From the NCBI RefSeq assembly GCF_964355755.1, contig NC_092677.1, forward strand, positions 4,734,101 to 4,798,100: 64,000 bases of DNA. The letters run 5' to 3'. Shown here in pieces: positions 20,941 through 49,587 of the stretch. Source of the DNA: Antedon mediterranea (taxonomy: Eukaryota; Animalia; Echinodermata). The notes under the pieces are model-generated. The model had not been told where the DNA came from and did no database searches. It worked only from the letters and a program-made list of their open reading frames with translations. A program made the translations under genes and the position numbers. Every line of letters begins with the position of its first letter. Within the stretch, counting starts at the first letter, position 1.

Positions 20941-21897
20941 AGAGTGTAATCTAGGCCTGCACTACGGTACTACAAAATTACTACAAGGGCTGGCCTATAG
21001 AAACGTGTAAACTGACTAATTTTTGCAGATTAATAATTCAATAAAACTGTTCTATTTCAGTGTTTTGTAGCTGTGTATTATTTTGTAATCTATTTTGCTA
21101 CGGTAAATGGTAAGATCATGATTGTTATTAAAAATTTTTATTTTTTTTTTAATTTCTTTTGTTTTATTTAGAAAAAAATGCGTATTATCTATTTATCGTC
21201 ACCGTCCTATACTAGTGTAAACAGGCATTTACAAAGAATTTTGTTTCAAAATTGCATGAAACAAATAGTTTATAGTCAACTCTATTATACACAGTAGTTA
21301 AAAAACATCCGTTAGGCAAAAACAGCTTGATGTCCGACAACCATTTTTAATGTATATAATGTATATATATCTAAATTACAGACTTCTAAGGCATTTTTTC
21401 TTCAGGTTACAGTACGCCATTTATTAGTATATTTTTGTATTAAAAATAAGTGCAATTTCCATGAACCTAGCATGGTGGGTCTGAGGTAAACACCCCATCA
21501 CACCTCCAAATATTTATGATACTTTCCAAAACTGCGTGATTCGTGAACAGATTTCTACTAGAATGTAATTTACAATAAAAAAAACAAATACCGGTAGCTA
21601 AAAACTCATTTTTCACAAGCATTTTTTCATTTATTTTCAAAAAGTAAAAATGACTTTGCATGCATAATAAGTTAAAACAGGCCAACAAAACCCAACTACA
21701 GTAATAATTAATAGTGGGTGTGCAAAATTTGTCCAGTTTGAATGAGCATTTTTTTTACTCTAAATTAATCATAATTCTTTGCTGTTCCTAACTGTATTTT
21801 CACTCTAATTATTATTTAACATACCATGTACAGTAGGCAAGCCCATCAACCATCTAGAAGTGTATTGTTAAATAAACTCATGATTTGGTATTTTCAG

Positions 21898-24800
21898 AAG
21901 CTCATGGTCAGTTGGTGACAACTTCTGACCAGATAGCCAAGGAAGGTGATGCTGAAGTAGTGATAACTTGTGATTATTCACAATTTACTTCTACTGCACC
22001 ACTTGCAGTACAATGGGATGAACTAGATGAAAATGGAACAAGCACTAACATTGTAAATTATCTGAAGATAGAAAATGGCCGTTTTAAATTAAACAAAACA
22101 CATGAGAAAGCCGAATTGCTGATCTCACAGCCAATGCGATCTGATTCTAAACGAATATTTAAGTGCGAAGTACAAGAAAAATATGGGAATATTGAACCAT
22201 CAAATCCAGCAACTCTAACTGTATATTGTGAGTTTAACAGGTTAAATTTATATACTCGTACATTAATGACACCTATGCTTGTTTTTTAATTGGTTGATTT
22301 TTTGTCTTTTTATTTTAATGTTAATTTTAGTTCCATTCTAATAGAAAAATTATCTTCAATACTTCTATCCAACATAAGCATAGAGAGCATACTCTTCATT
22401 GCTTTGTTCCATTGCCAAAATCTAAAATCTTTTGCATACATTAATTATGAGGAAATACCTCGTATAAATTTTCTTTATACATTTCATTCAGCACATACAT
22501 ACTGAATGTGAGTATTTATCTGGTGTTAGACTCAAACTAAATCACTGTTGAAGTTACTGTAACAAAATAATGTATTATTTTTAACTTAAAGTTAAATAGC
22601 CTGTGAAAAACACTATATTCACAGTCGGCCACAAACAGTACATGGCATTTTGTGTATGATATCTTGCAAGGATGAATATGTCTTTTACACGTTCATTTAT
22701 GTACAATGTTTTTCTCAGACTTAGGGCGCGTTTATACAACACACTATTACACGCATATTCAACATGCCTACGAGAAGTGTGTTGTATAACACCGAAGAGA
22801 TTCCGTGTAATGAGATTTTAATTGCAAAAAAGGCTACTTGGCTGAATCCTAAAATGTTGTGGATTCTCGGTTGTTGTTGGCGTGTTGGAAGTGTCCTCAG
22901 TGTATTGTTTTGACCTCTCGTTAAATATAAGTATGTGCTGTGAAAATGTTGACCAAATCTAGTAGATAATTGTGCTTTTTTTGCATTTTAACTGATTTAG
23001 CACTTAAAGCCCCATTCCCTACGTTTTTTAGATTTAATTTAAGATCACAAACTATATTTAATGTAAAAATAATACTATATGGTCCTATTGCGATAACTTT
23101 TTTCGTCTTTAAACGGTTAAAAATGTGAAAAATAAGTCGATTCTAATAATTATAGCGGCCCGCTATAAATCCCAAAATGCATTGCGCGCGGATTGATATT
23201 TTTGTTTTTCACCTGTAATTCGCCCACTTTTCGATCGATCGTGAGGCCAAAACAAATGGAAGACTCCTAACTTTTCAGCGAAAATACCGGGTTTTCCCCA
23301 ATTTGTATCAACGGAGTCTGGCAAAAATAGAAAGACAATTAATGCAGCAACTATACAACGTCAGGCTAGGTATATAGCTAGCGTACGATGTTCGTACGTT
23401 ACCGATGTTTACCAGCTAGGCCTACAAAACTAAGCCTAGCTAGGCTAGGCCTAAGACCGTCCACGAGAGGTCGATCGCCGCGAGCTACTTAGGTAGTGCA
23501 TTGTTTTTCACTTTTTATCATAATTTACCATAAAACGTACATTTAAGACAAGGAATGACATGGTTTAATGTTTTTAAAGTGATATATATGTATTATTTTC
23601 CAAAAAACGTCCAAAATTGCAGGGAAGGGGTCTTTAACATTAACGCTAATTAATGTTGGCATAATTTGGAAAAATGTAGTTTTATCCTAATTCTAAAACA
23701 TTATTTTTTTTATTTCAAAAGCAGATTTAAAAAATCAATAACTGAATAAACTGAATTTTAAACGAAATCATCCATTTTATTAAAATCCTTAATAAACTAA
23801 TATTAATTCATTTTGCATGCGATTATCTACATATAAATTTACGTAAGGGCAAAATTCGGTAAATCTCGGTTTATTTCTAGAATTTCTACTCGATGGTATA
23901 TAAAGTTGGTTCATACTTTCGGTACTGATTTTAACCATCTGATGTAACCCTGTTTACTAATTAAATTGAGTTAGGTAATTAGTTATTGACGATTAAAACG
24001 AATTTAGGTTCAACGATTTGCCCCAAATAGGGGTGTTTTCCGATCGTGGTATACACTGTCTAATGGATGTCCATCTTGAAAAATACCCGCCACAAAAATA
24101 CGAGGAGGCTTCGCATTTTCCTATCTCCTCCTACGATAATTGTTTTTAATAGCTGAAAACTGGTTGAACAGCTAGAGTACAGCATCATAATGTTGAAGAC
24201 AGGCCGATTTTCTTAAAAAAATACTATTTTGATAGATATAATATACGATTATACAAATGTATTGATTTGCGATGAATGGAACATTCCAATCTCTGTTTCA
24301 CAAGTGTCTATTCCCTCAGGCGTCGTAAAGGCAAGTACAGCACTGTATACTCGAAATTCGATCCATTTTTGTTTTCAATCTGTGCTGCAGAGGTTGGATA
24401 TAATTTTTTTTAAACGGATAATGAGCTAGCGTTTTCACTCGCCGTATATTATGTACAAATCTTTATTATTGCAGTTAAACCACCCACATCATCACCTTTC
24501 CCTCACTGGCATGAGTAGCGTTGTAAAACCAGTAGAGAATAGGCCTACGGTACATCACATGCCCTAAACGCAGAACAACTTTGGTGGGTAGGGTAGGAAC
24601 CAACTTAAGTATGAATTGGCTCTAAGAAACAATTGAAAACCATTAGGCCTACTAATTAAGTTGAGTTAGATAATTTAATATTTATTGACGATTAAATCGA
24701 ATTTATGATTTTCCCCGAGTAGAGGTGGTTTTCACAAATTGTTTTACATTATATTATAAACATATACACGTCGTAGTGATGTATCGTTACATGTGCTGTA

Positions 24801-27800
24801 CTATTTCAATCGACTAGGACGGTGATAGTTTCAACAAAGTATTACATCGCAATGTTTTACTGTGTTTAGTGGTATATTATTTGTAAAACATGAAAGCAAT
24901 TAATATTTCGTTACTAAATGGATAAAGAATATATTTTAACATTGTTCCTCTTTGCACCCATCCTCTTCCCCATCCCTCAACCCTAATGTTACATACAAAA
25001 CACAAATTAAGTTTGTTTAAATTTGACTTAAACAATTGGTCTTATTTTGTGACAAGTTTCTCTTTCGGAAGTAATAGGGTGCTAATTTTAGTTGAGTACA
25101 TAAATCACAGTGTCTATTTATTCGTTCCTGTACACGACATGTATTATTGTCCTGCGGTACGTACATTTGAAATCGCCAGTTTTTTAACGCTGAAATTATT
25201 ATGTATTCGAGAACCATCTGTGGGCACGACCTAGATGGTACGCGAGCGTACCATCTAGTATATACAACTTAGGATTATGGTATAACACGGTATTACGATT
25301 TAATGTATTACTGCAAGGTTTTTGTGGGGTTGACCTTGGCCCGTGCAACACGCTAAAAATTAAAGACGTGTTCAAATTGAGGGTGTTGTATAAACACAGC
25401 CTTAGAGGATCCGAGTCTGTTTGCCTCAACAAGCACTGTCTATGAAGGTCAATCAGTGACCTTTACCTGTAGTAAATCTGCATAAAAGAATAAATATATA
25501 CATACAATGATTTAAAAACATGAATTTCACTTAATATGGTCAAATACAAAATTTGGCAAAATTCTTCCATAAAAACCAGGAAGACTTTTTTCAGTAGTTA
25601 GGTAGTTAACCTAATGTAATAACATGTTGGTGACTCCCTAGATGGTGAAAAAAGATGGTGGATATATGGTGGAGAATTTTTGCTATAGCATGAAAATAAA
25701 AATCTGAAGTTGAATAAAAATATCAGAAATGTAATATTCAAGTTATATTACCTATATTTAGTCATCTGATAACATTTTTTACCACACCGTTTATTTTTCA
25801 TAGCTTTTTAAAATGCCTCTCTATTTACAAAATGTGTGCACAAACGAATAGAGATTTTACTGTGTAATTTGAACTATCCCCCCACTGATAAGAAAGTGCT
25901 TATTTTCAACAAACTTGTGTAACACAAATAAAATCCCAAACATTATGAAACATAGGGGAAACTATAGATCGATAATTATTGGAATGTATGATCAATAGAA
26001 ATTTTTTGCCCGCACCTGGCCTTTAACAACATTTATGATTTTTACTCTGGAAAATCTATTCTTAAAATACAATTTATATTTTCTTCCTTTTAATAATCAG
26101 ACTTGGATCAACCACTTCTTGATGCCTCAGCAAGTACTGTCTATGAAGGTCAATCAGTGACCTTTACCTGTAGTATACCTGATGGTGATCCTATTCCTCA
26201 CATTACTTGGTATATAGATGGACAGACAGTCAACACCAACAACCCTTCTAGATATGAGATTACCAATAATAGTACAGGGTCAATTCTTAAGATTAAATCA
26301 GTTACTGGAGAGGATGATGCAGGGAGATATACATGTAAAGCAGAAAGTGATCAGTTTAAAGGAGAGGATGCTAAAACAAGTGGAGGAAAAGGCTTGAATA
26401 TAATTGTATATTGTATGTACAAAGTTAACTTTGGAGAATAAATCAATAATTTATCAATATTAAATCAATATTATTTTCATATGAATGATACACACATGCA
26501 TTATGTGGTCAATATTACTACAAAAAATGGTTTTATGACAACATTGTTATCATATCTAGTGTCTGCTATAAAACAATCATTCAATCAATGTAAAATTGTT
26601 TAATTTATGTCTTTTTTAGATATTAATGTTACATATGAATATAAAAGTGGATTTGCAACCTGTACAGCAGAGGGCCATCCTAAGCCATCATCAGTATTGA
26701 TATTACAAGATGGAGAAGAGGTTAAGAAAGAAAATAACACAGCAACTATAGAAATTAATGATGAGATATGTCAATCAAATCTTACATGTTATGCAGAGAA
26801 TGGAAATCTTAATAAAACAATGACACTAGAGAACTGTACAGAAGGTATACCAATTGTTTTACAGATAGTTTAGATATTTACTTTATTAATGTTCCTCAAT
26901 TTAAAAACTGAGACTTTGACTCATAGCATCTTTTAAATTCTTCTGCAAATAAGCTTCCGTCTAGGTTCAAATTTAGATCTAAGTAATCTTTTTGCACTGA
27001 TAAAGTCCCATAACATTAGGGCTTGACATAATGTGTAATTCTGTTGATTCAAATATTTGTGTTAAATCATCAAATGGCAATCTAACATGGTTGACAACAG
27101 TTTAGCTGGTGGTGTAATATATGTAGCATAGTAAAATTACTTTATAGTAGTTTAAGGGAGGAAGATGTTAAAAATATTATTACCAAGCTTCCTAACAAGA
27201 CCAGTCCCTTAGATCCCATTCCCACATGGATATTAAAGAGTTGTTCTGACGTTTTATTGCCGGTCATCAACTCTTTTGTAAATAATTATTTAAGTAAAGG
27301 GCCATTTCCAAAAATTCTTTGATTAAGAAATCAAAATTAAATCCAATGTTTTAAAGAATTATCGTCCAGTCTCTAACCTTCCTACCTTATGTAAGATTAT
27401 AGAGTATCCAGCCATTTCCTGCTTTATATGAGACGCATTGTGCCTCGATGGTGGAATTGCCTACATGATTGGGTTCGTGAGGCTTCTATTTTTGCAATAT
27501 TTTAGGAAACAACTTAAAACGCATCTTTTTCCAAAACTTTTGTAATTACCTCCGCCAAGGAGGTTATGTTTTCACCCCTGTATGTTTGGGTGTGTGTGTC
27601 TGTGAACAGCCTGGAGGCCACAGTTTTCATCCGAATCTGGCCAAATTTGGCCTCAACAGCTCGGACGAGTTCTATTGTGAAGGGGAAAGGTCATAGTTCA
27701 AGGTCACAGTTCAAGGTCACAACTAACAAAAACTATTTTACTGCCTAGAGACCACAGTTTTTATCCGATTCTCACCAAACTTAGCCACAATCATCAATGA

Positions 27801-30800
27801 CTCATCATATAACTGTAGTTAAACTGTGAAGGGTCAGGGTCAAAGATCAAGGTCCACAAAAAAAAACGAAAAAAAAGAAATAAAAAAAAAAAACCTCAGC
27901 AGGACTTGAACCAGCGATCTCAACTGTGAGAGGCTGGATAAATTACCATTGCACCAAACTCTCATCCACTTATTTGTAGTGTGCAGTTAGCCTATTTACA
28001 CTTAAAACTAAAAAAAAAATATTAAAAAATATATATTTTTTCCGGGGACATTTTATGTAGGGGAATTTTACAGTAGCGGAGGTTTGTACTCTCGGAGTAC
28101 CCTCTAGTTTGCAGATATATTAGACACACCCTAGGAAAATAATTTTAACCAGTGTCTATAAAAATCATATTGCTAGACTGTATGAGAGTATGTTTTTAGA
28201 AATATCATATCTAATTCAGTTACAATTTGAATAATGGTTTTTTTAAATTCAAGCAATAGTTTACTTCCAAAGAAACATTTCTTATACAACTTTAATGAAT
28301 ATAATAATGGAAGTGTAAATCATTTTATTAGGTATTTCAGAAGATTCAGGATCATTGTACATCATCCTAGTTGTTTTGATTGTTTGTCTGTTACTATGGA
28401 TACTGCTTCTTGTTTGTAAGTAAAATATCTTATCCCTAAATTATTATTTTAATTAGTTTACGTCTTTTTGAATAGCAAAGACAAATTCCATGGTATTCAA
28501 ATGTAAATTTATTATATTTTTAATTGCCCTTTACATTACTTTTTATGAATGTTGCTTCTCCTCTTAGAAAACATAAGACTATGTGTAAGGATAGAAGATA
28601 CAGATTATAATTTGATATGTAATTTATTTTTAGATTTTATGTATTACAAGAATATTGAGTGGAACAATACAGATATTAATACAGTGACAGTTGAAGGTGG
28701 TGAACCAGTTATGATGAGTTGGAAATACCGTCCAAGTATTGCAAGATTCAAGACTTTTGAAATAACAAAAGAAGACAAAGTGCTTGGTTCAAATCAAAAG
28801 CAATTCAGTAGTTGTAAAACCGTCTGTCAGTTTGTCTGTTATTGCTGTGCTTACTTTTGTGGATTCTTTTGTATTGAATACTGTGACAAATCATGTAAGT
28901 TATTACATATTTTTTATTTATCCTAAAGAAAGTATATTATTATTATTATATCATACCATTTTATTTGATGGGGTTTTTTTTCCATCATCATTTGAATAAT
29001 GTAATTATTAGTTTTTATTGTAATTGTTTTGACAATAATAAGATGTAATTTGTAAATAATGATTTTATATTCAATTTTCAATTAATTTAATTATTTTCCT
29101 TTTTAATGAAATGTTTTAGGTACAGTTTATACAATTCACTTTGTAGTAACATCTAGGGCATTTTAACAACGAGAGAAAATTGATTTGATTCTTAAAAACC
29201 CCAGCTGTATTTGTCCGATTTAATATATTCTATTAATAGTTAATACATTATACTCTTTTGTTTCATGTCATAGTTGAATACAACATTAAAGATAAAATGA
29301 AACATTTAAGCAGGTGAGTTTAGGTTTTTTCACCATTGTAACATGATGATAAGAAGTTGGTTTTCCAAGTGGTTAGGACACTTGACTGTCATATAGAGAG
29401 ACCTGGGTTCAATTCCCGACAACTCCCAGTTTACTCAGCTGTAAATGAGTACCTGGTTGAAAATACTAGAGAGGATAAGGCGGCGTGGAAAGAAACTGGC
29501 CACCCTACCACATAATGCCGAGGCTTAGTAAAATGAGCTCCTAACAGCTCATTCTTCTACGTTCAGAACCAAATACTGAACTTACCTTTTACCTAACATG
29601 ATTACATACATTATTTTTACTTTTTTAAATCTTAATATGAAAAAATCTCACAATATAGTATCAGATGAATGAAAGAGAATGTGCAGAAGTCTTGTAGTTT
29701 AATATTATTATCTTGTATTTCGTTCCCTATAGCAGTGGAAGTGGGGAAGAGTATTGGATGATGGTCACTGAAAGAGAACGTCCTGATGGTGCAGAGGTCC
29801 CTGCTGTTGTAATCAAATCAAGTTTACCTAAGCAGACTGCAGGAACTGAAGAAACTGCTGCACTTCCTAAATCTGGAGAGATAACAAAGGTTGGTAATAT
29901 GAGAGTAGTATAAAACTATTATTTGATTTTCAACTAACTTGAAAAGAATGAATAATTATCTATTGCATATCATATTGGTATATCTATCGTATATAAATAT
30001 CTACTTCCAAACTGTACTCTTAATTAAAATGCCATTATGTTGAAAAACAGTATATTAATATATCATAAATATAGCATTATCAAGTGCTTAAAAGTTTATG
30101 CCTAGCTATCTTGTCATGTACATTACATTTTCTGAATGTACAATTAGTCAAATTATCAAATTGGAACAACTGCCAAGGCAAGAAATTACCTACCACATGA
30201 TACAACCAACAATCAATATTTAAATTCTATGTATTTTACTGGGTTATTTATACATTATTTTAAAACATTCTTAAATGTAAAATCTGTTTCAATTTTGTTT
30301 TCAAAGACAAATACTGTTGATGAAGGTAGTGAACTTTTAGCAGAACATCAAGAAACATCTGGTGGGTATAAACTTTGCTATTTATTTATTCTCGTGATTA
30401 CTTCAGGTGGAACATGAATAGTTTATTTTTTACTTGATATGCATTCCAAAAAGTCCTGTTTCAGTAGAATTGAATGTATATCTCTTACTTCAATCAATCA
30501 ATCAATCAACTTAATTAATTTGTTTAGGTTGGTCTTACTCTTTTGTAGAATTTGTTTTTAATTGATTGTTACAGTAAACATTAACATTAACTATTCTGTC
30601 TCGGAAATTAAATTATTGTATTGTTGAAATTGCTAATGAAGTACAGGTTTATTTATTTTTTTATTTATTAGAAGTTATTAAGTTATTAATATTACAATAT
30701 CTATGTTGTTCTATCTTTATTTAAGGAGGACACTTCAACATCGGTCATACAGTAAGAATCTTTATTTAAAAACTTTAAAAGCGCAGTAGCATGCACAAAA

Positions 30801-33800
30801 AAATGTTTGAATATTGTTATAGCTATTAAGTTATGCAATCACAATTTCTATGACAATAATTGTGTAAAGACATATACATCAATTCTGAAGCATTTATAGA
30901 AAATATAATCTGTGTCTATCTAGATTCCAGTATTAAAATTAAGTTTTTAAACATGTGAATATAATAATCCAAGCAATGTTGATTGAAGTGGTTATGGGCT
31001 GAGTGTAAGGCCGGTGTGCCGCAAAATAAAATATGTTCTTCATTGGTAAGAATTAGTCTTCTTGGACTGGATGTCCTGTTTACAAACCTGGTTTGTGAGA
31101 ACCCAGTGCATCCCAGTAGTGGTTACCCCATTGTACTTGGCCATCTACCCCTGTTTCACTTGTACACAATTTAGCCCAGTTACGCTGCAAGCTGGTATTT
31201 AGCACTTAGAGGTTTCATGACATCAGGCGCTTTATTAGTCCAGGATATTATTAAAATTTATTAAAAAGTCCCTCCAACCAAGATTTGAACCCGGACTACT
31301 GGGGCTTTTATGGTATTGTTCAAACCCCATTGGATAGCGACTCTTTCACTCTTGGTGTGGTACAGCCGAACAGCACTAGTCCTTAAATTGTACTCACCAG
31401 AGATCAAATTGATATTCCCTCATCTTTCAGTATTTTAAAGCAGGAACAATTTTTTTTTTCATTTTTGTTCTATATAATTTTGGAGATCATATGATGCTAA
31501 TGTGTTTTCTCTTAATTTTCAGCTTTTTACTTTTAAACCTATTTCTGTTGTGCAAGCTGGCTATAGTGATTCATACAGATGAACTAATATTGAATTTGTA
31601 TTATTATATAGTCTGTTTTAATCATTTGTTTGTGATCAACACTTTCATGAAAACATTTACAGTTATAGTACTCTTTATGGTTCTATATTTTCTAAAGGTT
31701 GTTGATTGATTGATTGAACAAAAATGTAATGTTGGCATAGAAGAAGTATCAATATTGTATAAACATAAATTTATAATATTTTTATTTATAAATTAAGATT
31801 ACGTATGTATTAGGTATAGTTAAAACAAAGACAATGACCACTCAAACTCCAAACTGTACAGTATAGTTTTGTTTTTTGCTATACCATCATCACAGCTGTA
31901 TTGTCTAAGTGTTGTATTATTTTTCACTGTTATGATGAATTTTCATAAAAAATTGACTTTATAAATGGGAAGACCGACTAAAATTACATCAGAAGTATAA
32001 TTTTACAAAAGTAATTGATATGGTTAATGATAACGAGTCGTCGGAAGATGGACCATTTCACGAATTTCCTATTTTGTAACCACAGTGTGATTTTGCCGTA
32101 GCTGCACTTGTAATCTGGCCTGATTTCACAGCCTTCTTTCTGCTTCACTGGGCGCTTATATTAATTGAAACTTTTACCGTTAAAGAGACAAACAAATATA
32201 TTTTACATTTTTAACTATTCATTTTAAACCCGGAACCCCCCTTTAAGTGTTGTATTATTTTTTATTTAATGTTCTAGCTAAAGACTTGAATGAAAGGTAA
32301 TGTTTTTCGGTATTTGATATTTATTTATTGGGATTTTTTTATGTTAAAGATATGTACTGCCAGCAAATCTCTTTTTTTGTCCATTTACCCATTATTATGC
32401 AAAATTACACAAATAACCTTTCACTAACATATAAAACTTCATTTATTATATGAAGTATTTCATGCTATGTGACCAAAGATTTACTACAGCCATTTCTATT
32501 TCTTTCACTAATTTAAAACCTCTCTGGGTATGTACAACACATCTACATCCATGCAAAGCTAGTGAAATGCTCATAGTTTTTTTCCTCTATGAGAATTGCC
32601 ACAACCTTACATGACACCAAACCCTTTTATAATTTACAAGCCATGAATAATGGAGAATTTCAGATTCTTCAGATCAGCAAAAAAAACCCCAAAATAACAT
32701 AATGTGAATAAGATTCTTCTATGCTTAATTCATGTGCATGCTTTTTTACAAAACATTTTATGCGCCAATGTTGAAGAACAGCCAATGAGCAACCTTTTTT
32801 TCTCTTCTTTGGCAAACAATTGTGTTTAGTTTTTTAGTTGTTTTTGTTTTTTTGTGGCAATTTATCTTTATCGGTTTTAGGGTTTGCCTGACTAATTTGG
32901 TAGTTTACCTTTTTCCTTTAATTTTCAACTGTTGCTAATAATATTTTACATACTTGGTTTGCTATATACTTACCATAGATTATATACTGTCCTTACTGTA
33001 TATCCTGTCTGTGTTTGTGCTTTGGTTGCAGTCTTAATCTACAAAATACACAATTTGTTTACATTGATAGAGTATACACATTGCCATTCACTTGCTTCAT
33101 TCTGCCCTTTTATATTACTTCTAATATGATTAATTGTCATATTCAGAATCATGTATTATCATATACATTTCTTCAGTAGTTTGCCATTATCTGTATCTGT
33201 TATATTATTTGATTCAAAACTCATTACCATATTATTACATTGAATATTATTTTATATTACATTTTTTTTATAACTTTAATTGGGTATTGCTAGCTTGGTG
33301 CATCTTATTTTCTTCTGTATTTTAAACACAAACTTTGCTTTTATTGTATAAAACCTCATTAAAATAGTATCTACAGTATATATACATTTACATAAGGGCA
33401 AAATTAGTATACAAATAATGTTTATGAATGGGGAGAATTTCTTGTATCGCATGTTAAACTAAATAGATAATTTTGAAATAAATAATTATATTTCATTTTT
33501 CACTTTATTAAAGATAAAATGTGTATGATTTCAAGTTGTCATCCATTAATTGGACAAGCAAAAAGAAATATAATTAAATTATTCTTTTATTTACACCTTT
33601 CTTGAAAGCTGTTATATGTACATTTATATGTCAAAAGATCAACTTATATCATTTATTATAATTGTAATTTGCAATTTAAATTGTTCAAAATTACCTGTTA
33701 TATGACCACAACAGAAATGAATAAATAATACATTTTTATTCCTTATTTTACATAATCATTGGTTTAATTTGTAACTTTCGACTGATTGATAGAATTAGTC

Positions 33801-36800: not shown

Positions 36801-39800
36801 TTCAACACCACGCTGTCAAAGCGCATATGAGGACAAGAGTAAGGTGTACCTTAAGATCAACAATGTTGAATCTGAAGATGCAAGAAAATACACATGCGAA
36901 GTGCAAGTTGAAGGAAGACAGAAAATATACAAGTGTTTTGGGAGGTTAGAAGTTCAAGGTAATATACTACAATATTATCATTATTGTAACTGCCCTAAAA
37001 ATAATGCGAGTGATATTCGTTATTCAAGTCCAACACCCAAGGTGCTCCTTTATTCCTGTTTCTTGAATGTGAACCAGATTACTAAAACAAAACATAACAA
37101 CGACCTATAAATGCATGTCTAGCAATATATGTGGCTCCTCAAGCGTCAAACTGAAAAGTTTTGTATTTAAGTTAAAACAAACAATATAAAAGACGATCCC
37201 TTAAACTAATTAAAAATGCAAAACCGTGTCGTCATAGCAACGGATAACAAAATCCTTGCGGTTAACTCCTCCTACAACGACGCGACACCTACATGCTAAA
37301 AACATTGCCATTGTACAGCTATACGTAAATCAATTAAAATGATCACATGAACTATAAAGTTTTGCGAAGATTATCATAACTATAGTATCCAGGTGCTTAA
37401 TGCAATGCAGTAACTTTAACAATGAATTATTAATACTAATACTTAGTAAATGATTAAATTAAGATACAACAGGTCAAAGCCATATCTCATCAATATATAT
37501 ACAGTAGGCCTAGGCCTAGCTAGGTAACATAACCGAAATTAATGGCGTCTCAATAGAACTTTGCCTAATAACATTAAATCTGTATGAGTTATTGATCAAT
37601 AAATGTAGCGGAATGCAGCTTACCAAAAATAGCAAAGTCACCCGCTATCTGCAGTACATAAACAATTCAGGTAAATATCAAAATTTAAACAATGTATGTC
37701 AATATCCTATAATTAAAGTCACTAGCTGTGATCATACATCCTCTGCTCTCTAATGCAAGATACCTCCTCACATGGTCCTAAAATGACGTCATTTTCTTAA
37801 TAATGCGCCCTCTCTAAATATTTAAAACTAGTTTGGGACCAAACATCCCGGCCCCTCTATTGCTATACTGAATTAAGGCATTAGCAAACATAGTTAACAA
37901 TTTAACAATAAATAAATTAATGTAACAACAATTTAACAATCTATTAAACAGCATCTGAACTACTGACTCTGCCTCCAGAATCACAACCAACTTCGTGATG
38001 GGCCGTACCAGTTCAGCGCTTGCAGTTCTCAGCTTAACCGATCTCACCAGTCCTCTTGCATCCTTATAAACTTCCAACACTCTTGCCATTGGCCACTGTC
38101 CTCTTGAGGAATTCTCCGCAATTATAACAATGTCTTCTACATCCACATTTCTACGCTCTTTAAACCATTTCTGACGCTCCATCAATGTTGCCAAATACTC
38201 CTTCCTCCATCTTTTCCAGAATACATTAACTCAGGTATTGCGCCTGTCTCCATCTCTTACGATATACATCTGCCTCACTGAATATACCTGGAGCAGGTAT
38301 ATAATCTGCTTGTGCCAGTAACAGGTGATTCGGCGTTAGTGGGCGATCTTCCTTAGGATCATCAGACAGCATTGTCAATGGCCGTCCGTTAACAATCGCC
38401 TCCACCTCACAAAACAATGTCCTCAGACCTTCATCATTTAGTTTTATTGTCTGCTCCTTTAACAATCCATATAACACCTTTCTTTTATCGATCTGATCAT
38501 TCTTTCCCAGACTCCCCCTTGGTGGGAGGCAGCTGGAGGATTAAATCTCCAATCTATTCCGTCTCGTCTTAATACTGTGTGAATCTGTGTGTTGTTCCAT
38601 TCTTTCATTCCCTTTCTTAGCTCCTTGTCGGCTCCTACTAAATTGGTTCTGTTGTCCGACAGCATGTATCTTACAGCACCTCGTCTGGCAATAAATCGCC
38701 TTACAGCATTTATACAGGAGTCCGTATCTAGCGAATCAGCCATTTCTAGATGAATCGCTCGTGTATTGAATTGAAGCATGTGAACACAACTCCGTACCGT
38801 TTTAAGACTGTCCTTCCTCTTTTGATTTCTATTGGACCAAAGTAGTCAACTCCAGATCTGGTAAACGGCTTCTCTCCGCTCATTAATCTTAAGCTTTGGT
38901 AATTCAGACATTTTCTGGGTCTCCAAACGTCCATTATACCTACGACAAGTAACACACCTTGAGAGAATACTCTTTGTCAACTTAAGTGCTCTTGTCACCC
39001 AATACTTCTCTCTGAATCTTGCTAGTACGGCATTCCTTCCTACATGACCCATGCGTTGGTGAATATCATTGATTATTATACCAGCAACTATGGATGTTTT
39101 TAGAAGCAATATTGGGTGTTTAGCTTCTAATGGTATAGATGCTCCTGCTATTCTTCCACCCACTCTGATGATTCCCTTTTCATCCTTAAAGGGGTCCAAC
39201 TTAAATGTGTCTTTGCCCATAGGTAGTTTTGAAGTTTCCAACTGCAGATATCTTATTATTTCTGTCTCAGCGGCATCAAGCTCTGAGCTTGTTATTGGCT
39301 CAATCCTTCTTACTCTTCCCTTTGGTGGTGTACGGGTTTTGCAACGTTGCATTAAATTACCCTTGACTCGAAGCATCCAAGCGACAAACACCTTTAACCG
39401 GCTCCAACTAGAAAATCTTCCAAACAATGATTCAATATAATGACATGAATTAACTGTTGCTGCTGCTGCATATTTTACATCTGGGTCACTTATTGACAGC
39501 AAAGCCATTCCTAGGTTTCCCTTGTCTTCTTGGTTTCTTAAGAACACCGGCCCCTTTAGCCACATTTCAACCTCCACCTTCTTGCTTAAGTGCATACCTC
39601 GTGAAGCTATGTCTGCAGGATTATTTGCAGTATCCACGTGTCTCCACTGCTCGCACTCACTTCCTTCGTGAATGATTGATCACCTATTTGCTGCAAAGGT
39701 GCTAAATCTTGTTTTGTTGTTTCTTATGTAGTTTATAACTAGCATGCTATCGGTCCAGAATATTACTCTTTTGAATGTGGTGTCAACTTCTTCTCGAACT

Positions 39801-41920
39801 AGACTTGCACATTTAACTGCTAGAGTTGCAGCGGTTAATTCTAGTCTGGGAATCGTCATCTTCTTAAGAGGTGCCACTCTTGATCGTCCATAAAGTATGT
39901 TACTGTCGATCGTTTCTCCTACCTGCGACCGCACATATATAGCAACTCCATAACCATTTTCGCTTGCGTCCGCAAACACGTGAAGTTCTTGGTCGGTTCT
40001 AAGTTTACATGTAATAAACCTGGGCACACGCAATTCCTCAACTAGAGGTAAGCTCTCTAGCCAGCGTTTCCACCTACGTAATTCATTTCCCTCCAACTGG
40101 ATTATTCCAATTCTTGCCTTTCTTGATTAGTTCTTGAAGAAGAATCTTAGGTGTTAACATCACGGGCGATGCCAGTCCCATAGGATCAAACACCGAGCTT
40201 ATTGTAGATAATATGCCCCTTCGGGTACATGGCTGCTCTGTGATACTGGAAAGCTGATAACATAGACAGTCACTCATTGGGTCCCATTGCACTCCAAGTG
40301 CCCTTTCGCTTGGAATTCCTTCTTCCTTAAATGCTAGGGCTTGTAGTTCCTTTGATCTGTTCTCTACTGGAACAGAGTTGATGACATCTCGTCTGTTACT
40401 GGTCCATTTACCTAGATTAAACCCGCCTTTTGCACAGAGTTCCTTAAGGTTTTTTACCATATTTATACCATCAGATGTTGATCCAACTGACTTTAAGCAA
40501 TCATCAACATAGAAGTTGCGTAGTAACGTCTGCGAGACTTCATCTTCTGTACTTGGTCTATTGTCTAAAGCTGTTTGTCTTAAAAACAATATATTGGCGC
40601 AAGCAGGAGAAGACGCTGCTCCAAACAAATGTGCTGTCTTTCTATACTCCACTGGTTGCTGGTTGACATCTCCTTCTGCCACCAGAAAAATCTCATATAG
40701 TCTCTATCTTTCACTGGCACCTTCACTTGGTGAAACATGGCCTCAATGTCGGCCATTATAGCGACTGGGTCTTCTCGAAACCTCAGTAAGACTCCTACTA
40801 AACTGTTTGTCATATTAGGTCCTGGGAGTAATAGATTGTTGAGAGATGTTCCCTGAAATTCGGCTGCACAATCGAAGACAACACGTATCTTCCCTGGTTT
40901 GTGTGGGTTATATACTCCATGATGTGGTATGTACCAGGTCTTTCCTATCGTCGGTTCGATATTGTCTACCTTTTCAGCAAATCCTTTCTGTATAAGTTTT
41001 CTCATAAACTCTTGGTAGTCGTATTGGAACTCCTGGTTTCGACGCAGTTTTTTTTTCAAGCATTCCAGTCTCTTAACTGCCATAAACCTATTATTGAGAA
41101 GTATTGGCGTTTCTTCTCTAAATGGCAGATCGATGTGGTAGTGTCCATTAATGAGACGGATGCTATTGTTGACCTTTGAAACGAACAACTTATCCTCTCT
41201 CGACGGTTGTTTTGCAGGAAAATCTAGTTCAGTGTCCTGAGGGGCGGATCCAGACATTTTTGAGAGGGGGGGGGGGGGGGTCCGCCGATAAAAAGGGCAC
41301 ATCAGATATTGAGTATTTGAGCCACAGCCCCCCCCCCCCATGGTGGGGGTTGTGGCGAAGCGAATTTTGTTACAGGACACACTATGGCGCAATTTGTTTA
41401 CAACGTTCGTGGCTAAAAACGATCATTTTCGGAAATGTTTTAGACCCTATATTTCGAAAACTACAAGTCAGATTTTCGTAATTCTTTCTTTATTGGAATA
41501 TTGAAACAAAATACCAACAGATAATGTTTAAATTGGTTGAAAAATAACAACTTTTAATTTTGCATCGTTATCCCTGCTAATAAAGTGTCATTTCCGGCGA
41601 ACTAGAAAGGTGCCATTTATCATAGATTTTGCGTGCGAGAGTGCCATTTCCGGCCATCTAAGTGTATCTGGTGGGTGAAAATCTGTGATAATACCATACA
41701 TGGCTCTGTGGTCTAGTGGTATGATACTCGCCCTGTAAGCGAGAGGTTGCAGGTTCGAATCCAGCCAGAGACATTTTTTCATACAACTAAAAAATATGGA
41801 ACTTTCGCCAATGAGCTATGCTCGACGCGATTATGAGATCATGTTCCGAATATGAGCACTGTTTCTATAATTTACAGTATGATTTATATATAATTTACAC
41901 AGTGCTACGCAACATCATTG

Positions 41921-41954
<34 letters not shown>

Positions 41955-44900
41955 TTTCAGTATATTTGATCTGAATATTCTAGCTTTACAAGTGTGCAAA
42001 AAAAAAAATGTAGAGGCTCTCTACTTGAAACGCTGTTTATATATTACAGGTCCAGTTTTAACAATGGAAAATAAAGAACTGCACACTGTTGAAGGAGGAA
42101 ATGCAAGAATTCCTTTTTATGTCTCGCCAATACAAAAACAAATTAACAAATTTATTTTTTATAAATTTGAAAAGGAAATTGCTGATAGTCTTACAATTTT
42201 TCGGAGATTTAAAATTAAATATAGTGAGGACAAGCTGACAGGTTTCCTTGAAATTTCTAATGTTAAATCTTCTGATGCTGGTGACTACCGTTGCAAATGT
42301 GTGATAGAAGGAAAGGATGTTTACTCTACAAAAAGCAGGTTGGAAGTTACCAAAGCCTGTAAGTATATAATATTAGGCCAAACAAAGATTTGTTTGCCCA
42401 CCATTCTTGAAAATTGTTCAAAGGATTGGTTGGGGAGGGGGAATTTTTTCTCCGTAATTGAGGACTTCTCATAAATTGTCAAACAAAATAAACATAAATA
42501 AATAAATAAATCATTTTGTTTGACAAATCCAAAAGAAATTACTCACATTCTTTAGCTTTCACCATCTTGGCTGATGGCTTGATCATCATCATAATTCATC
42601 AGTTCAGTCTGTCGTTCTGTGCTGTGTACACATGGGTAAGAGTGAAGTGATGGATCAATTGCGACTGACATGTAAGCGTTTCAGAATCAAAATATGAGAA
42701 GCGTACTGAATATTTCTAATCAATGCAATTCTTTATAGACCTAATAATATTATTCTGGCCCTTGACTTTCTGTGTGTGTGCGTGTGTGTGTGAATAGAAG
42801 TAGGGGGTGGTTCCAAATGAGTTATAAAGAATTAGCATCACCTTGCTTTATCTTGTGTTTTCTTCAAAGTATGAAATCTTTTACCAAAATTCATAATCAG
42901 AAATTAAAAACATTTTATACTACGGTATATCTTTATTGTTAATTTGTTTAATTTATTGCACTATAGCAGCACCTATGATATGCTAAGTACGTTAAGTTTG
43001 TTTTTAGTCAACTGAAGTTCTGTATTTTAAATAATGAAATACATCTTTACATCTTGCATGCCCGGTACAAAAAGACATTATTACCTGATAAACTTCTTTT
43101 TTGTCTGAAAATAATATTAATTCATATATTTTAATCACCAATAAGAAATACACATTCAAATATTACTTTTATATCATGATATTTGTTTTTGTTTTTTTCT
43201 GTTGAAATGTTTTGGTACTATTGTATAATATTATTGTGATAGTAATTCCATCTAAAATATACTATTTCTACTTTTAGATATAAGACTCAATGATGGTCTT
43301 GTGATGAATGGGGAAAAGGCAGTTTTAACTTGCAAGTATGGACTTGACAATCAAGTGAAATATGTCAATTGGTATAAAAAGACTGGTGATGAATCTCAAG
43401 AGGAGAAGATAGAAAAAGTACCAGAAAGATGTAAAGTAACTCATGATAGGCTTAATCAAACAAGCTTAGAGTTCCAAGAAGTGACATTGGCTGATGCTGG
43501 GGAGTACATATGTGAACTTACAACTGCTACAGAAATAACCAAAGGCAAACTTTCAGAAACACATACATCATCTGCACACCTGCATGTACAGTGTAAGTAA
43601 AAATTGTGTATTTAAGCTGGTTATTAAACAATCGAATTGTGTAAAGCAGGTAGTAGTTTCACCTAATATAGTGTAATTGGCTTTTCTCTATGCTTTGGTA
43701 ATATCAGGGAAGAATACAGTATATTCAATTTTCTTAAATACCCAAACGATAGTCGGCCTACAGGAACTATTTTGTTTGGATATTCCATAATGAATATTGT
43801 CATATGATTTCAAACTGTTAATAAATTCATTGTATAATATTGTTACCGTATGTGTATATTGTAAACTGATTTCATCAAAACACCTTTAGATATTAAACTG
43901 AATGATTGTCTTGCGACACATGGAGATAAAGCTGTTTTAACTTGCAAGTATGGAATTGAAAATCAAGTAAAATATGTCAATTGGTATAAGAAGACTGCTG
44001 ATCAAGACATAATGATATTTACTTCTGATAAGTCTCAAGAGAAGAAGATAAAAAAAGCACCAGAAGGATGTAAAGCAATTTTTAAAGAAAATGAATCAAG
44101 CTTAGTGTTTGAGCAAGTTTCGTTAGCTGATGCTGGAGAGTACATGTGTAAAGTGAAGGAAAAACTTCCATCACATACAGCATCAGCACACTTGCATGTA
44201 CAGTGTAAGTTGATTTCTACATAATATGCATTTTAAAATTGATATTAAAACAATTGATTGACTTGATGAATATAGTTAAAAATACCTATGTTGATCTGAA
44301 GGAAATATGATATCTCTCAGATGAATTACTGTAATTGTAGGGTATAGTTTGATTAATTGAATGTTGTTTCCAACTTTGATGTACTGTATAATCCACAGTT
44401 AATTGTAAAGACTTGAAAAAAGTTATCATGTTGGACGTCAACCTTCAGATCACTAACCTGGAACTCGTACCTTTAGCTCACATAGCTTGCACATATAATC
44501 ATTGTTTATGAGTTGTCAAAATAATTTACTTTATTCAAGTAGGGAGTTGTAATTACAATTTAATAATGATTTTTGTGATGTTTTCAAGAGGGGGTCGAAC
44601 ATGATTTAATTCCATGATTCAAGGAAATATATACATTATTTTAGTAGATTTAATTGTTATTCAATTAATGTTGAAAGCTAGGCTGATGCAACATTTGGTA
44701 CTTTCTTTTCGACTGGTGGAGTAGGAAAATTGAACTGGGTTAGTATTGGAATTCATAACAAATTATGACACCTAGCTTGTATTTCATTTTCATTCCCTTA
44801 TTTTTATAGGCGATGTGTTTACTGAACAAGTTAAAACAAGGTAAATTGATTTCCATTCAAAAAAAAAAAATGTTTTTCTATTTTAATTTTGAAAGTCAAG

Positions 44901-47668
44901 GTTTGAATTTGACTTTAAAATAACTTCTTGAGTTGAGAGAATTATCTTGAAATTGTACTGAAATTTATCTTTTTAGACACCCTGCGGTAGTCTTTATAAA
45001 TTCTCACTTTATCATCTTTTGTGAAGAAAACAACTCAGATGTGATAATGAGAAGAGGAAAATTGAATGGCAAGAGTTTGATTGAATGGAAAAAAGCAAAA
45101 ATAATTTTTAATGAAAAGGAGACATGGTAATTAGTATTGTGTTGACCGACATTGGCAAACATTGTTTGCTGGTTATAATGTTTCTAGTACATTTAGATAA
45201 GTAATCAATTATTCATTTTGTTTCATTTTCTATGATATTACCATTGACATTAATATCAAAGAACATTTGTAAATTGTATTTAGAAACAATGACGGTACAA
45301 AAGATGTCTCCAAAAAGTGGACAAAGTTGATTGTAAAAATGTAAAACATTTTTTTAATAATTCTACAAATTTACTATACAGCTTTCAGAATCTAGTACCA
45401 ATTGTGACAGATAAGGAAAATGGAAAAATGACTCTAATGTGTGTTAGACAAAATAACAACACAAAAGAGAGGAAGATAATAAGGATGAAATCTGATGATA
45501 ATGGAGTCAACTGGACAGAACCAGAAGATGTACAATTGGATTTGAAAGGCTTACCCATATATTTTATAAGTTAGTATAAGTTAATTAGTTTTTATTGAAG
45601 TTGATATTAAATATCTGAGCTGTACATCATGGTTTTGAATATGAATTAGTCATATTCAAAACCATTATGTTAGTTTTTTCTGTTATTTAAATTTTTTCTA
45701 ATGTCAGTACAAGTATTACCATTTACATTATAAACCCATTTACTGATACCATACACAAGAAGCAACAATTTAAACAACCAATTTTACACAAATGTTTTAT
45801 GTACTTACCAAAATACTGATTTGTTATAGGGTTTTTTTTTGTTTAAAGTTTTTTAATAAACATTTGTATAAAGAAAATGTTTACTTTTATCTATCTTGAT
45901 TTTAATATATATATGTTTTACTTTATGTAGTAAACAGTATAAATGTACTGCAGTAATCAATGTGTAATTATATGTATAAATTGTTTTTCAGGCCTTGGTG
46001 ATGGTGTATGCTTACATTCAGGAAAATTGGTTGTTGCAGGAGTTTGGACGCTAAAGGATAATGAAAGCATAGAAAGTAATTTATTTAAATGATCTTTATA
46101 GAATTAAGAAGGTGCTCAAATATTTATTATGTACATAAGGTGATCGTTCGGTTCCTTAAATGAATATATTTGTTTTGGATATGTCAAAGATCTTTGAACT
46201 CCTCAAGTCTCTCACTTGAATTGTGTCATATGTGAACCATGCATTAAATCTTAATTTGAATTCAATAAAAATGCATCACAATGACCCAAGAACAGCAGTT
46301 GATCTAAACATTTGTTTCTGTTTATAAAGTCCAGTACTATAGCAATCTGCATGGGGAGATAATAGCTAACTAAAATGCGTTTTTCATGTTTATGGTTTCA
46401 AGTTGGCCATGTTATTTTTATTGTTAATATTTGTTTATTTTTCAGAAAAACTGTTTGTGATGACTGGTACTAATGATGGTGACACCTGGGATATTGTTAC
46501 TGCTGTTAAATCACCCTATGCTACTTTAGGAGGACACACACAAGTAAGAAACTTATAAATGCCCAGGGTTTCATTTCTAATGATCATATTTCAGTGCCAT
46601 TTTGTCATACAGTAATGTAATTTGTTTATTAGGTTTTTGAATATGCAAATGACAATGTTTACATCAGCTGTTCATTGGAGGACTGTAAACAACGTTTCCG
46701 TGTGTACGGTGATGAAGGATTTAGAACGTTTAATGTCAAGACTGAGGATGCACAATTAGAGACAAATCCAGAGTGCCAGGTATTCTCTACAATATAATTT
46801 TTTTTTTATTTGTTGAAGTGTTGAATGTTCTTGAGTTGTAAACTCGGCCCTAAGGCCGTTTTTGACTTACTTTAGTATCCACATATAAACAAACTAAATT
46901 GTATCAAAGTTTTTTATATGATTTCTTATCTTATATGGAATAATGAAATAAGTAAAAAAAAGAATATTTCATGAGTTGAAAGATTGAATGTTCTATTGAA
47001 CAAAGCGGAGCTGAGATATAAACAAATACAAAATATTCATTATTTGTTTTATATTAACACCTTTGGCCAGGATATAGGCCATTAAAAAAAGTGCTCCAAT
47101 TATTGAGGTAATTTGATTCCCATGATGAAAATTCTGTTCTATTCTACATAAGTATTAGCTTCATGTGTGCGACAGGTAGAGTATCACACTGTTTGCCTTG
47201 TGTGTAATTAAAAATTGTTTTTATGCCGAAGTGGGAAATTACTCTAGAGAATATGCGAAACAAACATACCCCTAGTTATTTTAACATTGTTTAAAAGATG
47301 TTTAAATTGCAATACTTGCAATTATTTGATGTGTTGGTTTAACTCTATTTGCTTATATTATTATCTAGGGTGGTATTGTACGTTTACCAACAAAGACAAA
47401 TCAGTTCTACCAAATAGCAATGGCAAGTCATGGAAATGAAACAAAGGATCTTACACTTCACTTAAGTGAAGATGGTTGTAAAACCTGGTGTCAGTTTAAC
47501 ACACTAGGTGCAGTGAATGCAGAAGAATCTGACCTAGCTTACTACAGTGTAAAAGAAGGGAAAGAAGAAGCAAAAGGAATAGTGTGTGTTTACAGTTATA
47601 GTTCAGAAACAGAGGGTTATAAGATTGGAATGCAGCTGATTTCTAACAAAGAAATTATGTTAATGTAA
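21898..47668 (+). CDS. Chimeric IgSF receptor paralogue 4: V-I-Ig ectodomain, TM, six further Ig domains, C-terminal degenerate sialidase (NEU-like) propeller, about 1400 aa
   Basis: Phase-compatible exon chain: 21898-22227, 26101-26412, 26620-26844, TM 28332-28415, 28634-28894, 29274-29313, 29733-29889, 30307-30361, 32278-32296, 34114-34133, 34574-34705, 35932-36243, 36632-36958, 42050-42358, 43278-43592, 43890-44204, 44810-44840, 44977-45126, 45382-45569, 45992-46075, 46446-46543, 46633-46779, 47369-47668. No stop until 47668. The signal-peptide exon is uncertain (candidate 21061-21102) and the micro-exon choice is provisional. Confidence 0.7.
23008..23633. mobile_element. TTAA-flanked MITE (Kolobok-like)
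   Basis: ttaa|agccccattccctacgtttt ... aaaattgcagggaaggggtct|ttaa: imperfect TIRs with a TTAA target duplication. Confidence 0.65.
25400..25480 (+). pseudogene. Orphan 5' fragment of an I-type Ig (D2) exon
   Basis: gcctcaacaagcactgtctatgaaggtcaatcagtgacctttacctgtagta is nearly identical to 26124-26175 and is followed by an interspersed repeat. Confidence 0.7.
25510..26025 (+). repeat. Interspersed repeat of about 520 bp, copy 1
   Basis: Highly similar to 49072-49587; a more diverged partial copy lies at about 10370-10590. Confidence 0.85.
27160..27540 (+). mobile_element. Degenerate LINE (L2/CR1-group) ORF2 fragment
   Basis: Translates to [18 protein letters not shown]...[17 protein letters not shown], the conserved pre-RT region of non-LTR elements. 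Confidence 0.75.
27545..28109 (+). mobile_element. Non-autonomous Helitron/Helentron-like element
   Basis: 5' tacctccgcc and 3' gcggaggt subterminal inverted motifs, a 3' hairpin (gtactctcggagtac) and a CTAGT end. Embedded minus-strand tRNA-like segment at about 27895-27960. A related 5' end occurs at about 620-650. Confidence 0.55.
28332..28415 (+). CDS. Transmembrane exon of paralogue 4
   Basis: tag|...|gtaagt, 84 nt, phase 1-1, encodes [28 protein letters not shown]. Not homologous to the TM exon of the other paralogues. Confidence 0.75.
29355..29595 (+). mobile_element. tRNA-derived SINE
   Basis: A/B-box-like head (agtggttagg...gggttcaattccc), a ctcagctgtaaatgagtacc core and an (acctt)n-like tail. 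Confidence 0.65.
34955..35865. mobile_element. MITE with G/C-tract subterminal repeats
   Basis: TIRs aggcccgtagc / gctacggccct, poly-G and poly-C just inside the ends, and a 7-bp direct repeat gtacaac at 34948-34954 and 35866-35872. Confidence 0.75.
35932..44204 (+). CDS. Five single-exon Ig domains of paralogue 4
   Basis: Phase 1-1 exons of 309-327 nt, each with a D-A-[GR]-x-Y-x-C F-strand motif (DAGMYQC, DARKYTC, DAGDYRC, DAGEYIC, DAGEYMC). The last two are a tandem duplicate pair. Confidence 0.85.
36985..41238 (-). mobile_element. BEL/Pao LTR retrotransposon, 5'-truncated and frameshifted, in an intron of paralogue 4
   Basis: Broken pol ORFs: RT ([28 protein letters not shown]), RNase H region ([14 protein letters not shown]), integrase (H-H-C-C zinc finger, GVDYFGP, GGVWERM) and C-terminal WPMARV. 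Purine tract at 37846-37857 abuts a candidate 3' LTR, 36985-37845, bounded TG...CA. Confidence 0.93.
41702..41773 (+). other. tRNA-like sequence (tRNA pseudogene or SINE head, nominal TGT anticodon)
   Basis: Foldable as a cloverleaf: A box tggtctagtgg, anticodon stem ctcgc/gcgag, B box ggttcgaatcc. Mismatches in the acceptor and T stems. Confidence 0.5.
44810..47668 (+). CDS. Sialidase-like (GH33, NEU2/3/4-type) beta-propeller, predicted catalytically inactive
   Basis: Seven exons give RHPAVVF (RIP motif), FIIFCEE..DVIMRRG..IEW, Asp-boxes SDDNGVNW and SEDGCKTW, degenerate [21 protein letters not shown] (GPGHG motif), CQGGIV and EESDL (AYSDL motif), in the order known for animal sialidases. 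Confidence 0.8.
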
Positions 47669-49071: not shown

Positions 49072-49587
49072 AAAAACATGAATTTCCCTTAAAATTGTCA
49101 AATACAAAAATTGGCAAAATTCTGTTATATAAACCAGGAAGACTTTTTTTCAGTAGTTAGATAGTTTAACCTAATGTAATAACATGTCTGGTGACTCCCT
49201 AGAAGGTGAAAAAAGATGGTGGATATATGGTGGATATTGTTCTATAGCATGATAAAAATAAAACTCTGAAGTTGAATAAAAATACTACAAACGTAAAATT
49301 CAAGTTTATTACCTATATTATAGTCATCTGATAACATTATTTACCACACTGTTTATTTTTCATAGTTTTTTAAAAATGGCTCTCAATACAACTTTTTTGT
49401 GTACAAAAGAATAGAGATTTTACTGTGTAATTTGAACTATCCCCCACTGATAAGAAAGTGCTTATTTTCAACAAGCTCGTGTAACACAAATAAAATCCCC
49501 AAAATTATGAAACATAGGGGAAACTATAGATCAATATTTATTGGAATGTATGATCAATAGAAATGTTTTGCCCGCACCTGACCTTTA
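49072..49587 (+). repeat. Interspersed repeat of about 520 bp, copy 2
   Basis: Matches 25510-26025, e.g. ggtgactccctaga..ggtgaaaaaagatggtggatatatggtgga and ttttgcccgcacctg. Confidence 0.85.

Follow-up and report, generated by a model that had tools for sequence, protein, structure and literature searches.

We describe a gene in a 64-kb window of the genome of the feather star Antedon mediterranea, a crinoid, that carries immunoglobulin (Ig) domains on both sides of a transmembrane (TM) helix and ends in a degenerate sialidase propeller (the window is the whole stretch of DNA analysed, and positions are counted from its first nucleotide). By a slight balance of probability, we read its product, P0001, as a non-activating, scaffold-tailed, type I member of a paired-receptor cluster, with a tail of Ig domains and pseudo-sialidase that is likely cytosolic. 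The gene comprises 25 exons (17698–47668, plus strand) that, spliced by coordinate, give a single stop-free frame of 1435 amino acids (aa), identical letter for letter to RefSeq model XP_071958824.1. All 24 introns have GT..AG borders, and P0001 (1435 aa) was recovered at 100% identity when homologues were sought with the last exon, as it was with exon 7. An earlier sequence-only reading had proposed an in-frame run from the ectodomain through a TM exon (28332–28415) and Ig domains to the propeller, and this frame bears it out. The same reading started the gene at 21898, too far downstream, and missed two leader exons (17698–17745 and 21061–21109).

Domain order of P0001

P0001 consists of a signal peptide-like leader, a V-set Ig, an I-set Ig, a short third Ig, a TM helix at aa 331–349 and a further 1086 residues. 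Pfam Ig families were found in three ectodomain exons and six tail exons, that is, on both sides of the TM helix. The coding part of exon 1 (17698–17745) supplies the ATG and the basic start of the signal peptide (aa 1–16); it matches the P0001 N terminus, and its donor lies at the 98th percentile (splice-site scores are percentiles among local GT/AG sites). Exon 2 (21061–21109) encodes the hydrophobic core of the predicted signal peptide, judged by eye (aa 17–32). The ectodomain follows in exon 3 (21898–22227; V-set, aa 33–142, Pfam V-set E = 1.3e-4), exon 4 (26101–26412; I-set, aa 143–246, Ig_3 E = 1.7e-17) and exon 5 (26620–26844; short third Ig, aa 247–321, Ig_2 E = 0.0036). Exon 6 (28332–28415) encodes the TM helix, which contains no charged residue.

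In the tail, the five intact Ig exons and exon 13 matched Pfam V-set/I-set families and carry the DxGxYxC F-strand signature. Exon 14 (35932–36243; V-set E = 3.8e-8) keeps both canonical cysteines, exon 15 (36632–36958; Pfam Ig match) and exon 16 (42050–42358; V-set E = 7e-7) lack the B-strand cysteine, and exons 17 and 18 (43278–43592 and 43890–44204; V-set E ~6e-11) are a duplicated pair. The loss of this cysteine from three tail Igs, noted earlier by the motifs MMSWKY, KLFLNL and RIPFYV, is confirmed by the sequence. The ratio of nonsynonymous to synonymous substitution (dN/dS) between exons 17 and 18 was 0.40, similar to the 0.45–0.57 of ectodomain pairs, and we therefore take the tail to be under coding constraint. 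The propeller occupies exons 19–25 (aa 1104–1435): it starts in exons 19–22 (44810–44840, 44977–45126, 45382–45569 and 45992–46075) and ends, with the stop codon, in exons 23–25 (46446–46543, 46633–46779 and 47369–47668). Candidate poly(A) signals, ATTAAA and AATAAA, recognized by motif, lie downstream at 47931–47946.

Continuity of ectodomain and tail

Splice signals and paralogous genes suggest that the ectodomain and tail likely belong to one transcript, and we consider it highly probable that P0001 is one real gene. The exon 6 donor scored at the 96th percentile and the exon 7 acceptor at the 99th, the 218-nt intron between them contains no AATAAA, and the splice sites of exons 12–14 are strong. 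Sequence corresponding to exon 7 was present in seven Antedon gene models (P0001, P0005, P0006, P0012, P0010/15, P0008/9/13 and P0011/16/17), six on one 28.6-Mb contig and one on a 36.2-Mb contig, both of chromosome size. A TM segment stood directly before this sequence in all seven, and in all seven it was hydrophobic; this order is more than chance. The propeller formed the C-terminal end in five of the seven, and the tails are otherwise reshuffled among paralogues, with the number and type of Ig domains varying and the propeller present or absent. The proposal of an exon-shuffled fusion thus held for the tail, although not as a one-off event, since the trait is shared by a family of seven gene models. 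Outside Antedon, a family profile search scored 7987 candidates and recovered nothing more specific than generic Ig proteins, with identities of ~22%.

For read support we used run X1, which is only guessed to be RNA, and a DNA-type run, X2. X1 contained GT..AG joints at three introns of the model (28894>29274, 43592>43890 and 46075>46446), none of which occurred in X2. X1 contigs were placed at 88% likeness, and paralogues therefore contribute joints; paralogue-type joints were 34132>34577, 34675>35932, 42355>43278 and 46539>46633.

Several observations weigh against continuity. The joint 28415>28634 was not among the 15 of 131 X1 joints listed and the joint 26844>28332 fell outside the stretch covered, so that continuity from ectodomain to tail is unobserved in RNA. 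One X1 joint, 42355>36632, has an exon order that the P0001 gene lacks, and the shorter side reached at least 31 letters in only one of the three clean GT..AG joints. All seven supporting gene models were produced by a single automatic annotation, that of a single genome. Tail-only models also exist (P0003, P0004, P0018 and Anneissia P0021), which makes a stand-alone tail gene possible. Finally, the TM exon has phase 1-1 and could be skipped in frame.

These points bear on two alternatives. In the first, annotation or occasional read-through has merged two transcription units, a short-tailed receptor (exons 1–12 or fewer) and a soluble Ig–pseudo-sialidase gene. The tail-only models and the unseen TM joints are consistent with this, as is a link that runs through tiny exons (19 and 20 nt) and introns of up to 1.9 kb. 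However, the same order recurs in seven models with isoforms, half an Ig domain lies on each side of the link, the exon 12–14 splice sites are strong, and X1 contains the paralogue-type joints 34132>34577 and 34675>35932; we regard two units as very unlikely. A separate tail gene would lack a signal peptide, so its product would be cytosolic too. In the second alternative, the main product is spliced without the 84-nt TM exon, giving a multi-Ig protein that is either secreted or Cys-anchored and whose propeller lies outside the cell; this is in keeping with the phase of the exon and with its acceptor and the exon 5 donor scoring at the 89th and 79th percentiles. We judge this the least probable of the alternatives considered: the TM segment is present in 7/7 models, the gene models retrieved include no TM-skipping isoform, and the unpaired cysteines of three tail Igs would meet the secretory pathway.

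A putative split Ig domain with a Cys-rich insert

The first post-TM Ig, earlier counted as one of six tail Ig domains, is not encoded by one exon: its two putative halves (28634–28894 and 34574–34705) are set apart by ~125 aa. Using 33 rows of intact tail Igs (two rows overlap), we built a family Ig profile of 105 positions. Exon 7 (28634–28894), a first half without the B-strand cysteine followed by a Cys-rich stretch, aligned to positions 5–61, and exon 13 (34574–34705, aa 534–577) to positions 66–103; the two were complementary in 7/7 paralogues. Exon 13 also covered positions 70–103 of 109 in Pfam V-set. Only 2 of 2000 shuffles scored as high as exon 7 against the profile. Nevertheless, the exon 7 match is weak (8.2 bits), which counts against a genuine Ig half, and exon 7 alone had no Pfam match at E 0.1. 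AlphaFold applied to paralogue P0008 with an 11-row alignment folded the ectodomain and TM helix, and left the split Ig at a predicted local distance difference test (pLDDT) score below 50; with so shallow an alignment, the reassembled Ig fold is one that we infer. Complex prediction of the two halves scored 0.22, below the mark of 0.34. On the profile matches, exons 7 and 13 would form one split Ig domain.

The ~125 aa between the halves, from exons 7–12, consist of a Cys-rich hydrophobic stretch (aa 412–433, 28819–28884), a basic patch and low-complexity sequence. Exons 8–12 (29274–29313, 29733–29889, 30307–30361, 32278–32296 and 34114–34133; aa 437–533) encode the basic and then acidic low-complexity part, placed by splicing and, at its start, by the X1 joint 28894>29274. 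A further candidate exon at 30726–30751 was rejected, as it broke the frame and is absent from the RefSeq path. The Cys-rich stretch (6 Cys in 20 aa) was present in six of the seven paralogues with exon-7 sequence. It had no Pfam CYSTM match at E 10 and its position is internal, so it does not qualify as a CYSTM/CYSPD domain. Separately, P0012 and P0015 carry an insert of eight-residue repeats (SPDPTSVQ) in one tail Ig, at about the loop that is interrupted in the split Ig.

The tail probably faces the cytosol

Given one real gene, we are fairly confident from sequence features that the P0001 tail is cytosolic. Exon 6 is the only strong hydrophobic helix of P0001 (Kyte–Doolittle 3.45), and hydropathy, charge and paralogues favour type I single-pass topology. 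The earlier proposal of a single-pass protein with an entirely cytoplasmic tail is therefore probable as to the side of the membrane, although it overlooked a possible second TM segment. That segment, the Cys-rich stretch, is the chief difficulty for a single-pass topology. It reached 1.77 on the Kyte–Doolittle scale over 19 aa, and its 19-mer Hessa sum was +1.8 compared with −7.2 for the TM helix. In 6/6 paralogues that have it, the stretch is net basic on both flanks and is followed by 4–6 Lys/Arg. P0012 lacks it and its frame continues, although this could be a model error. In P0009/P0013, VTYADL and IKYVDL lie downstream of the stretch and match the consensus of the ITIM (the tyrosine-based inhibitory motif of immunoreceptors) as given in bioRxiv 10.1101/2022.03.04.482883. 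N-glycosylation sequons in P0001 were in excess in the ectodomain (9 versus 3.8 expected, p = 0.006) and not significantly so in the tail (12 versus 8.5, p = 0.13); they were unenriched in all six tails compared.

Other features of the sequence point the other way. Sequon enrichment reached p < 0.01 in only two of six ectodomains, no cluster of basic stop-transfer residues follows the P0001 TM helix (the next 15 aa have a net charge of −1), and three tail Igs keep both canonical cysteines. If the Cys-rich stretch crossed the membrane, P0001 would be a two-pass protein with ~60 aa in the cytosol and the Ig array and propeller as a second ectodomain. Conservation of the stretch in 6/7 paralogues, its hydropathy, the 12 tail sequons, the three Igs with both cysteines and an N-terminal hydrophobic anchor in a hemichordate sialidase relative all fit such a protein. 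Crossing would, however, put the two split-Ig halves on opposite sides of the membrane and the P0009/P0013 ITIM motifs outside. The Lys/Arg after the stretch, its absence from P0012 and a relative, P0159, with the same type of Ig behind a single TM also argue against a second crossing, which we consider highly improbable. We favour a palmitoylated membrane tether as the likely role of the stretch. According to PMC10840359, yeast CYSTM domains formerly annotated as TM segments are palmitoylated tethers; the parallel is by analogy only.

Paralogues with ITIM-consensus and possible death-fold-like tails

Relative to isoform P0008, isoforms P0009/P0013 contain an extra 80-aa block inside the split Ig, with the two ITIM-consensus motifs and TSYFEL. 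Splicing of this block may switch inhibitory motifs on and off in that gene. The ITIM-bearing insert of P0013 had no significant match within the 64-kb window (best E 0.67), and its likeness to tail exons of neighbouring genes (E 0.91) was rejected as support. P0005 and P0001 differ by one residue in the N-terminal V domain and have tails ~80% identical, suggesting that the ectodomain was recently duplicated or underwent gene conversion.

P0159 (XP_071958835.1), on the same contig as P0001, shares the ectodomain (60–73% identity) and has a different TM segment followed by the polybasic stretch RKRRSRR. Its four post-TM Igs share 41–59% identity with exon 15, and between them and the TM lies no hydrophobic segment; P0159 also carries a TIYSNV motif. 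The P0159 C terminus resembles TRADD-like_N plus DED (Atlas score 0.85, 165 shared features; a lead only). No match to it was found in Pfam or PDB, so the DED stays an Atlas lead, and a single-sequence structure model was unusable (pLDDT 33.6). P0159 is possibly an Ig receptor wired directly to death-fold signalling. Single-sequence PDB searches with other family members gave 0 matches for P0004 and a best E of 0.002 for P0002.

The propeller is a pseudo-sialidase

Pfam BNR_2 matched aa 1131–1389 (E = 1.4e-13, above cut-off), and both the Asp-box/BNR repeats and homology place the propeller in the GH33 sialidase fold family. A search with the paralogue P0002 among 1.84 billion representatives yielded 147 matches, including named crinoid and hemichordate sialidases. 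After the Antedon copies, the closest were two Anneissia japonica proteins, one of them also Ig-plus-propeller (P0021, XP_033114275.1), followed by crinoid and hemichordate sialidase-2/3/4-like proteins.

Six residues are fully conserved in sialidases (R21, D46, E218, R237, R304 and Y334), according to PMC3431349. With NEU2 numbering carried over through motif matches in P0092 rather than a direct NEU2 alignment, P0001 keeps one of the six, R21 (R1114). The arginine triad is broken (R237 is S1301, and the R304 position is a gap or Lys), the Tyr/Glu pair is lost (Y334 is E1389 and E218 is H1285), and the loop with the acid/base D46 is deleted. The suspicion of a dead sialidase was thus correct, with five of six catalytic residues lost: to judge by these residues, the propeller is not an active sialidase. 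It is probably not a sialic-acid lectin either, because the carboxylate-binding arginines are reduced from three to one. The His and Ser replacements at E218 and R237 are common to all 10 crinoid copies, two of which are from Anneissia, and inactivation and Ig fusion therefore predate the Antedon–Anneissia split. Two crinoid genera retain this pseudo-sialidase, and its former active site has acquired new residues that do not vary; it would represent a clean conversion from enzyme to scaffold.

We also built a quick tree of 65 rows (the 10 crinoid copies, 5 named sialidases and 50 of the 136 other matches, selected for lengths of 330–430 aa; NEU1 and vertebrate NEU2-4 were not among the rows). 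The crinoid copies formed a clade (100) on a long branch (1.41), sister to crinoid sialidase-3/4-like enzymes (SH-aLRT 93) within an ambulacrarian clade (99). On these rows, the grouping may fit the NEU2/3/4-type assignment made earlier. As an argument for the cytosol, the assignment is weaker than had been stated: a hydrophobic leader is absent from P0039, the closest active enzyme of Antedon, but present in a Saccoglossus relative, P0112, so sialidase class alone does not fix location.

ITAM-bearing neighbours and a proposed role

Four minus-strand genes in the window (spanning 396–15925 and 50300–54700) have the same V–I–short Ig ectodomain, with V domains 55–62% and I domains 58–80% identical to those of P0001. 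Their ectodomain exons are 53–80% identical overall, with the third Ig of one neighbour at 41%. Where seen, their TM segments differ from exon 6, which has no match in them. As had been supposed, these neighbours bear an ITAM (a tyrosine-based activation motif of immunoreceptors; YxxL-x8/9-YxxL), at 539, 6724, 12937 and 52291. The first 260 tail residues of P0001 contain neither ITAM nor ITIM. Clustered paralogues with a shared ectodomain and differing tails are the pattern of paired receptors; the lack of an ITIM in this stretch of P0001 itself counts against our reading.

We propose the following mechanism, in which a modulating scaffold is the probable function of P0001. P0001 would adopt type I topology with its tail inside the cell. 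The Cys-rich stretch would be S-palmitoylated and lie on the inner leaflet instead of crossing, so that both halves of the first tail Ig would be on one side. P0001 would recognize ligands of the kind that the ITAM receptors bind and compete or co-cluster with these receptors, delivering a docking scaffold in place of a Syk-recruiting motif and so damping or redirecting the ITAM signal. The propeller would act as a protein-binding surface rather than as an enzyme.

The tail could instead be an integrated sensor or decoy: its cytosolic Igs and pseudo-sialidase would be baits resembling what microbial effectors target, or would bind a cytosolic danger ligand, with the clustered ITAM receptors passing on the signal. 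Reshuffling of tails between paralogues, retention of the dead propeller in two crinoid genera and the TRADD-like_N plus DED-like end of P0159 (again as an Atlas lead) are compatible with this. But dN/dS was below 1 in the single tail pair tested, and neither Pfam nor PDB supports the DED lead; we hold a sensor or decoy to be distinctly unlikely. Under the modulating-scaffold reading, this echinoderm paired-receptor cluster would diversify inside the cell as well as where ligand is bound, and it offers a direct test of how ITAM signalling is balanced in non-vertebrate deuterostomes.

Other features of the window

The neighbour gene at 50–54 kb contains a YQDL-bearing tail exon in four copies. 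A ~2.0-kb tandem duplication at 2124–6181 (95.6% identity) has copied one tail exon together with part of a V exon. An I-set exon at 1502–1796 is frameshifted, and an I-set exon fragment lies at 25402–25473. A 525-nt dispersed repeat occurs at 25514–26028 and 49072–49590 (90% identity), and a period of ~131 nt is shared by two related tandem arrays, at 56397–57610 and 60985–61784. Intron 15 of the P0001 gene holds a broken Pao/BEL-type retroelement on the minus strand (37800–41420), whose pieces, spread over several frames, are Peptidase_A17, integrase core, H2C2 zinc finger and DUF5641; it showed no pair of terminal repeats. A minus-strand open frame of 286 codons at 58983–59840 was judged by eye to resemble the final part of a LINE reverse transcriptase, and had no Pfam match at E 0.01.

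Comparison with known systems

Paired Ig-superfamily receptor clusters also include those of Botryllus, teleost NILT and LILR/PIR. The closest described invertebrate case is, by analogy, the Hydractinia Alr family, which, as described in bioRxiv 10.1101/2022.03.04.482883, resembles the cluster here in its tandem arrangement, V+I ectodomain, exon shuffling, and ITAM in some members with ITIM-like motifs in others. Alr tails are short motif strings, whereas the P0001 tail comprises ~1085 residues of folded domains, and we claim no sequence homology. A full-text literature search found no paper on this family or on its architecture (Igs on both sides of one TM and a dead enzyme at the end), although subscription papers and genome-paper supplements may list these genes.

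Plant NLRs offer a parallel in their integrated domains: unrelated host domains, often inactive, that have been joined to an immune receptor belonging to a paired cluster. The fusion in P0001 is of a similar kind, but in an animal membrane Ig receptor, and a bait role for it is only hypothesized. Crinoids might combine an exon-shuffled V–I–Ig ectodomain with interchangeable cytosolic modules (ITAM, ITIM, Ig arrays, pseudo-sialidase and TRADD-N/DED-like), the Ig–pseudo-sialidase tail serving as bait or sensor for intracellular microbial factors and signalling via the ITAM neighbours. This would be a membrane-receptor version of plant integrated domains; we consider it unlikely.

Among GH33 sialidases, the propeller may belong with the NEU5/NEU2-4 side as described in PMC3431349, sharing Asp boxes, the first FRIP Arg and BNR_2. 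Its nearest active relatives are Antedon XP_071940874.1 and Anneissia sialidase-3/4-like proteins, and it differs from GH33 sialidases in its lost catalytic residues, its fusion to Igs and a receptor, and its long branch. The Cys-rich stretch shares with CYSTM/CYSPD, as described in PMC10840359, a hydrophobic run of ~20 aa, 5–7 Cys and a TM-like look, but is internal, within an Ig insert, rather than C-terminal. The best structural analogue is integrin beta4, which, according to PMC8394641, has a ~1000-aa cytoplasmic tail in which four repeats are of fibronectin type III and cysteines are palmitoylated. Like P0001 it is single-pass with a long beta-sandwich tail, and palmitoylated cysteines would be shared if those of P0001 are modified as we infer; it differs in having fibronectin type III rather than Ig domains, an integrin ectodomain and no pseudo-enzyme, and the two are unrelated by descent.

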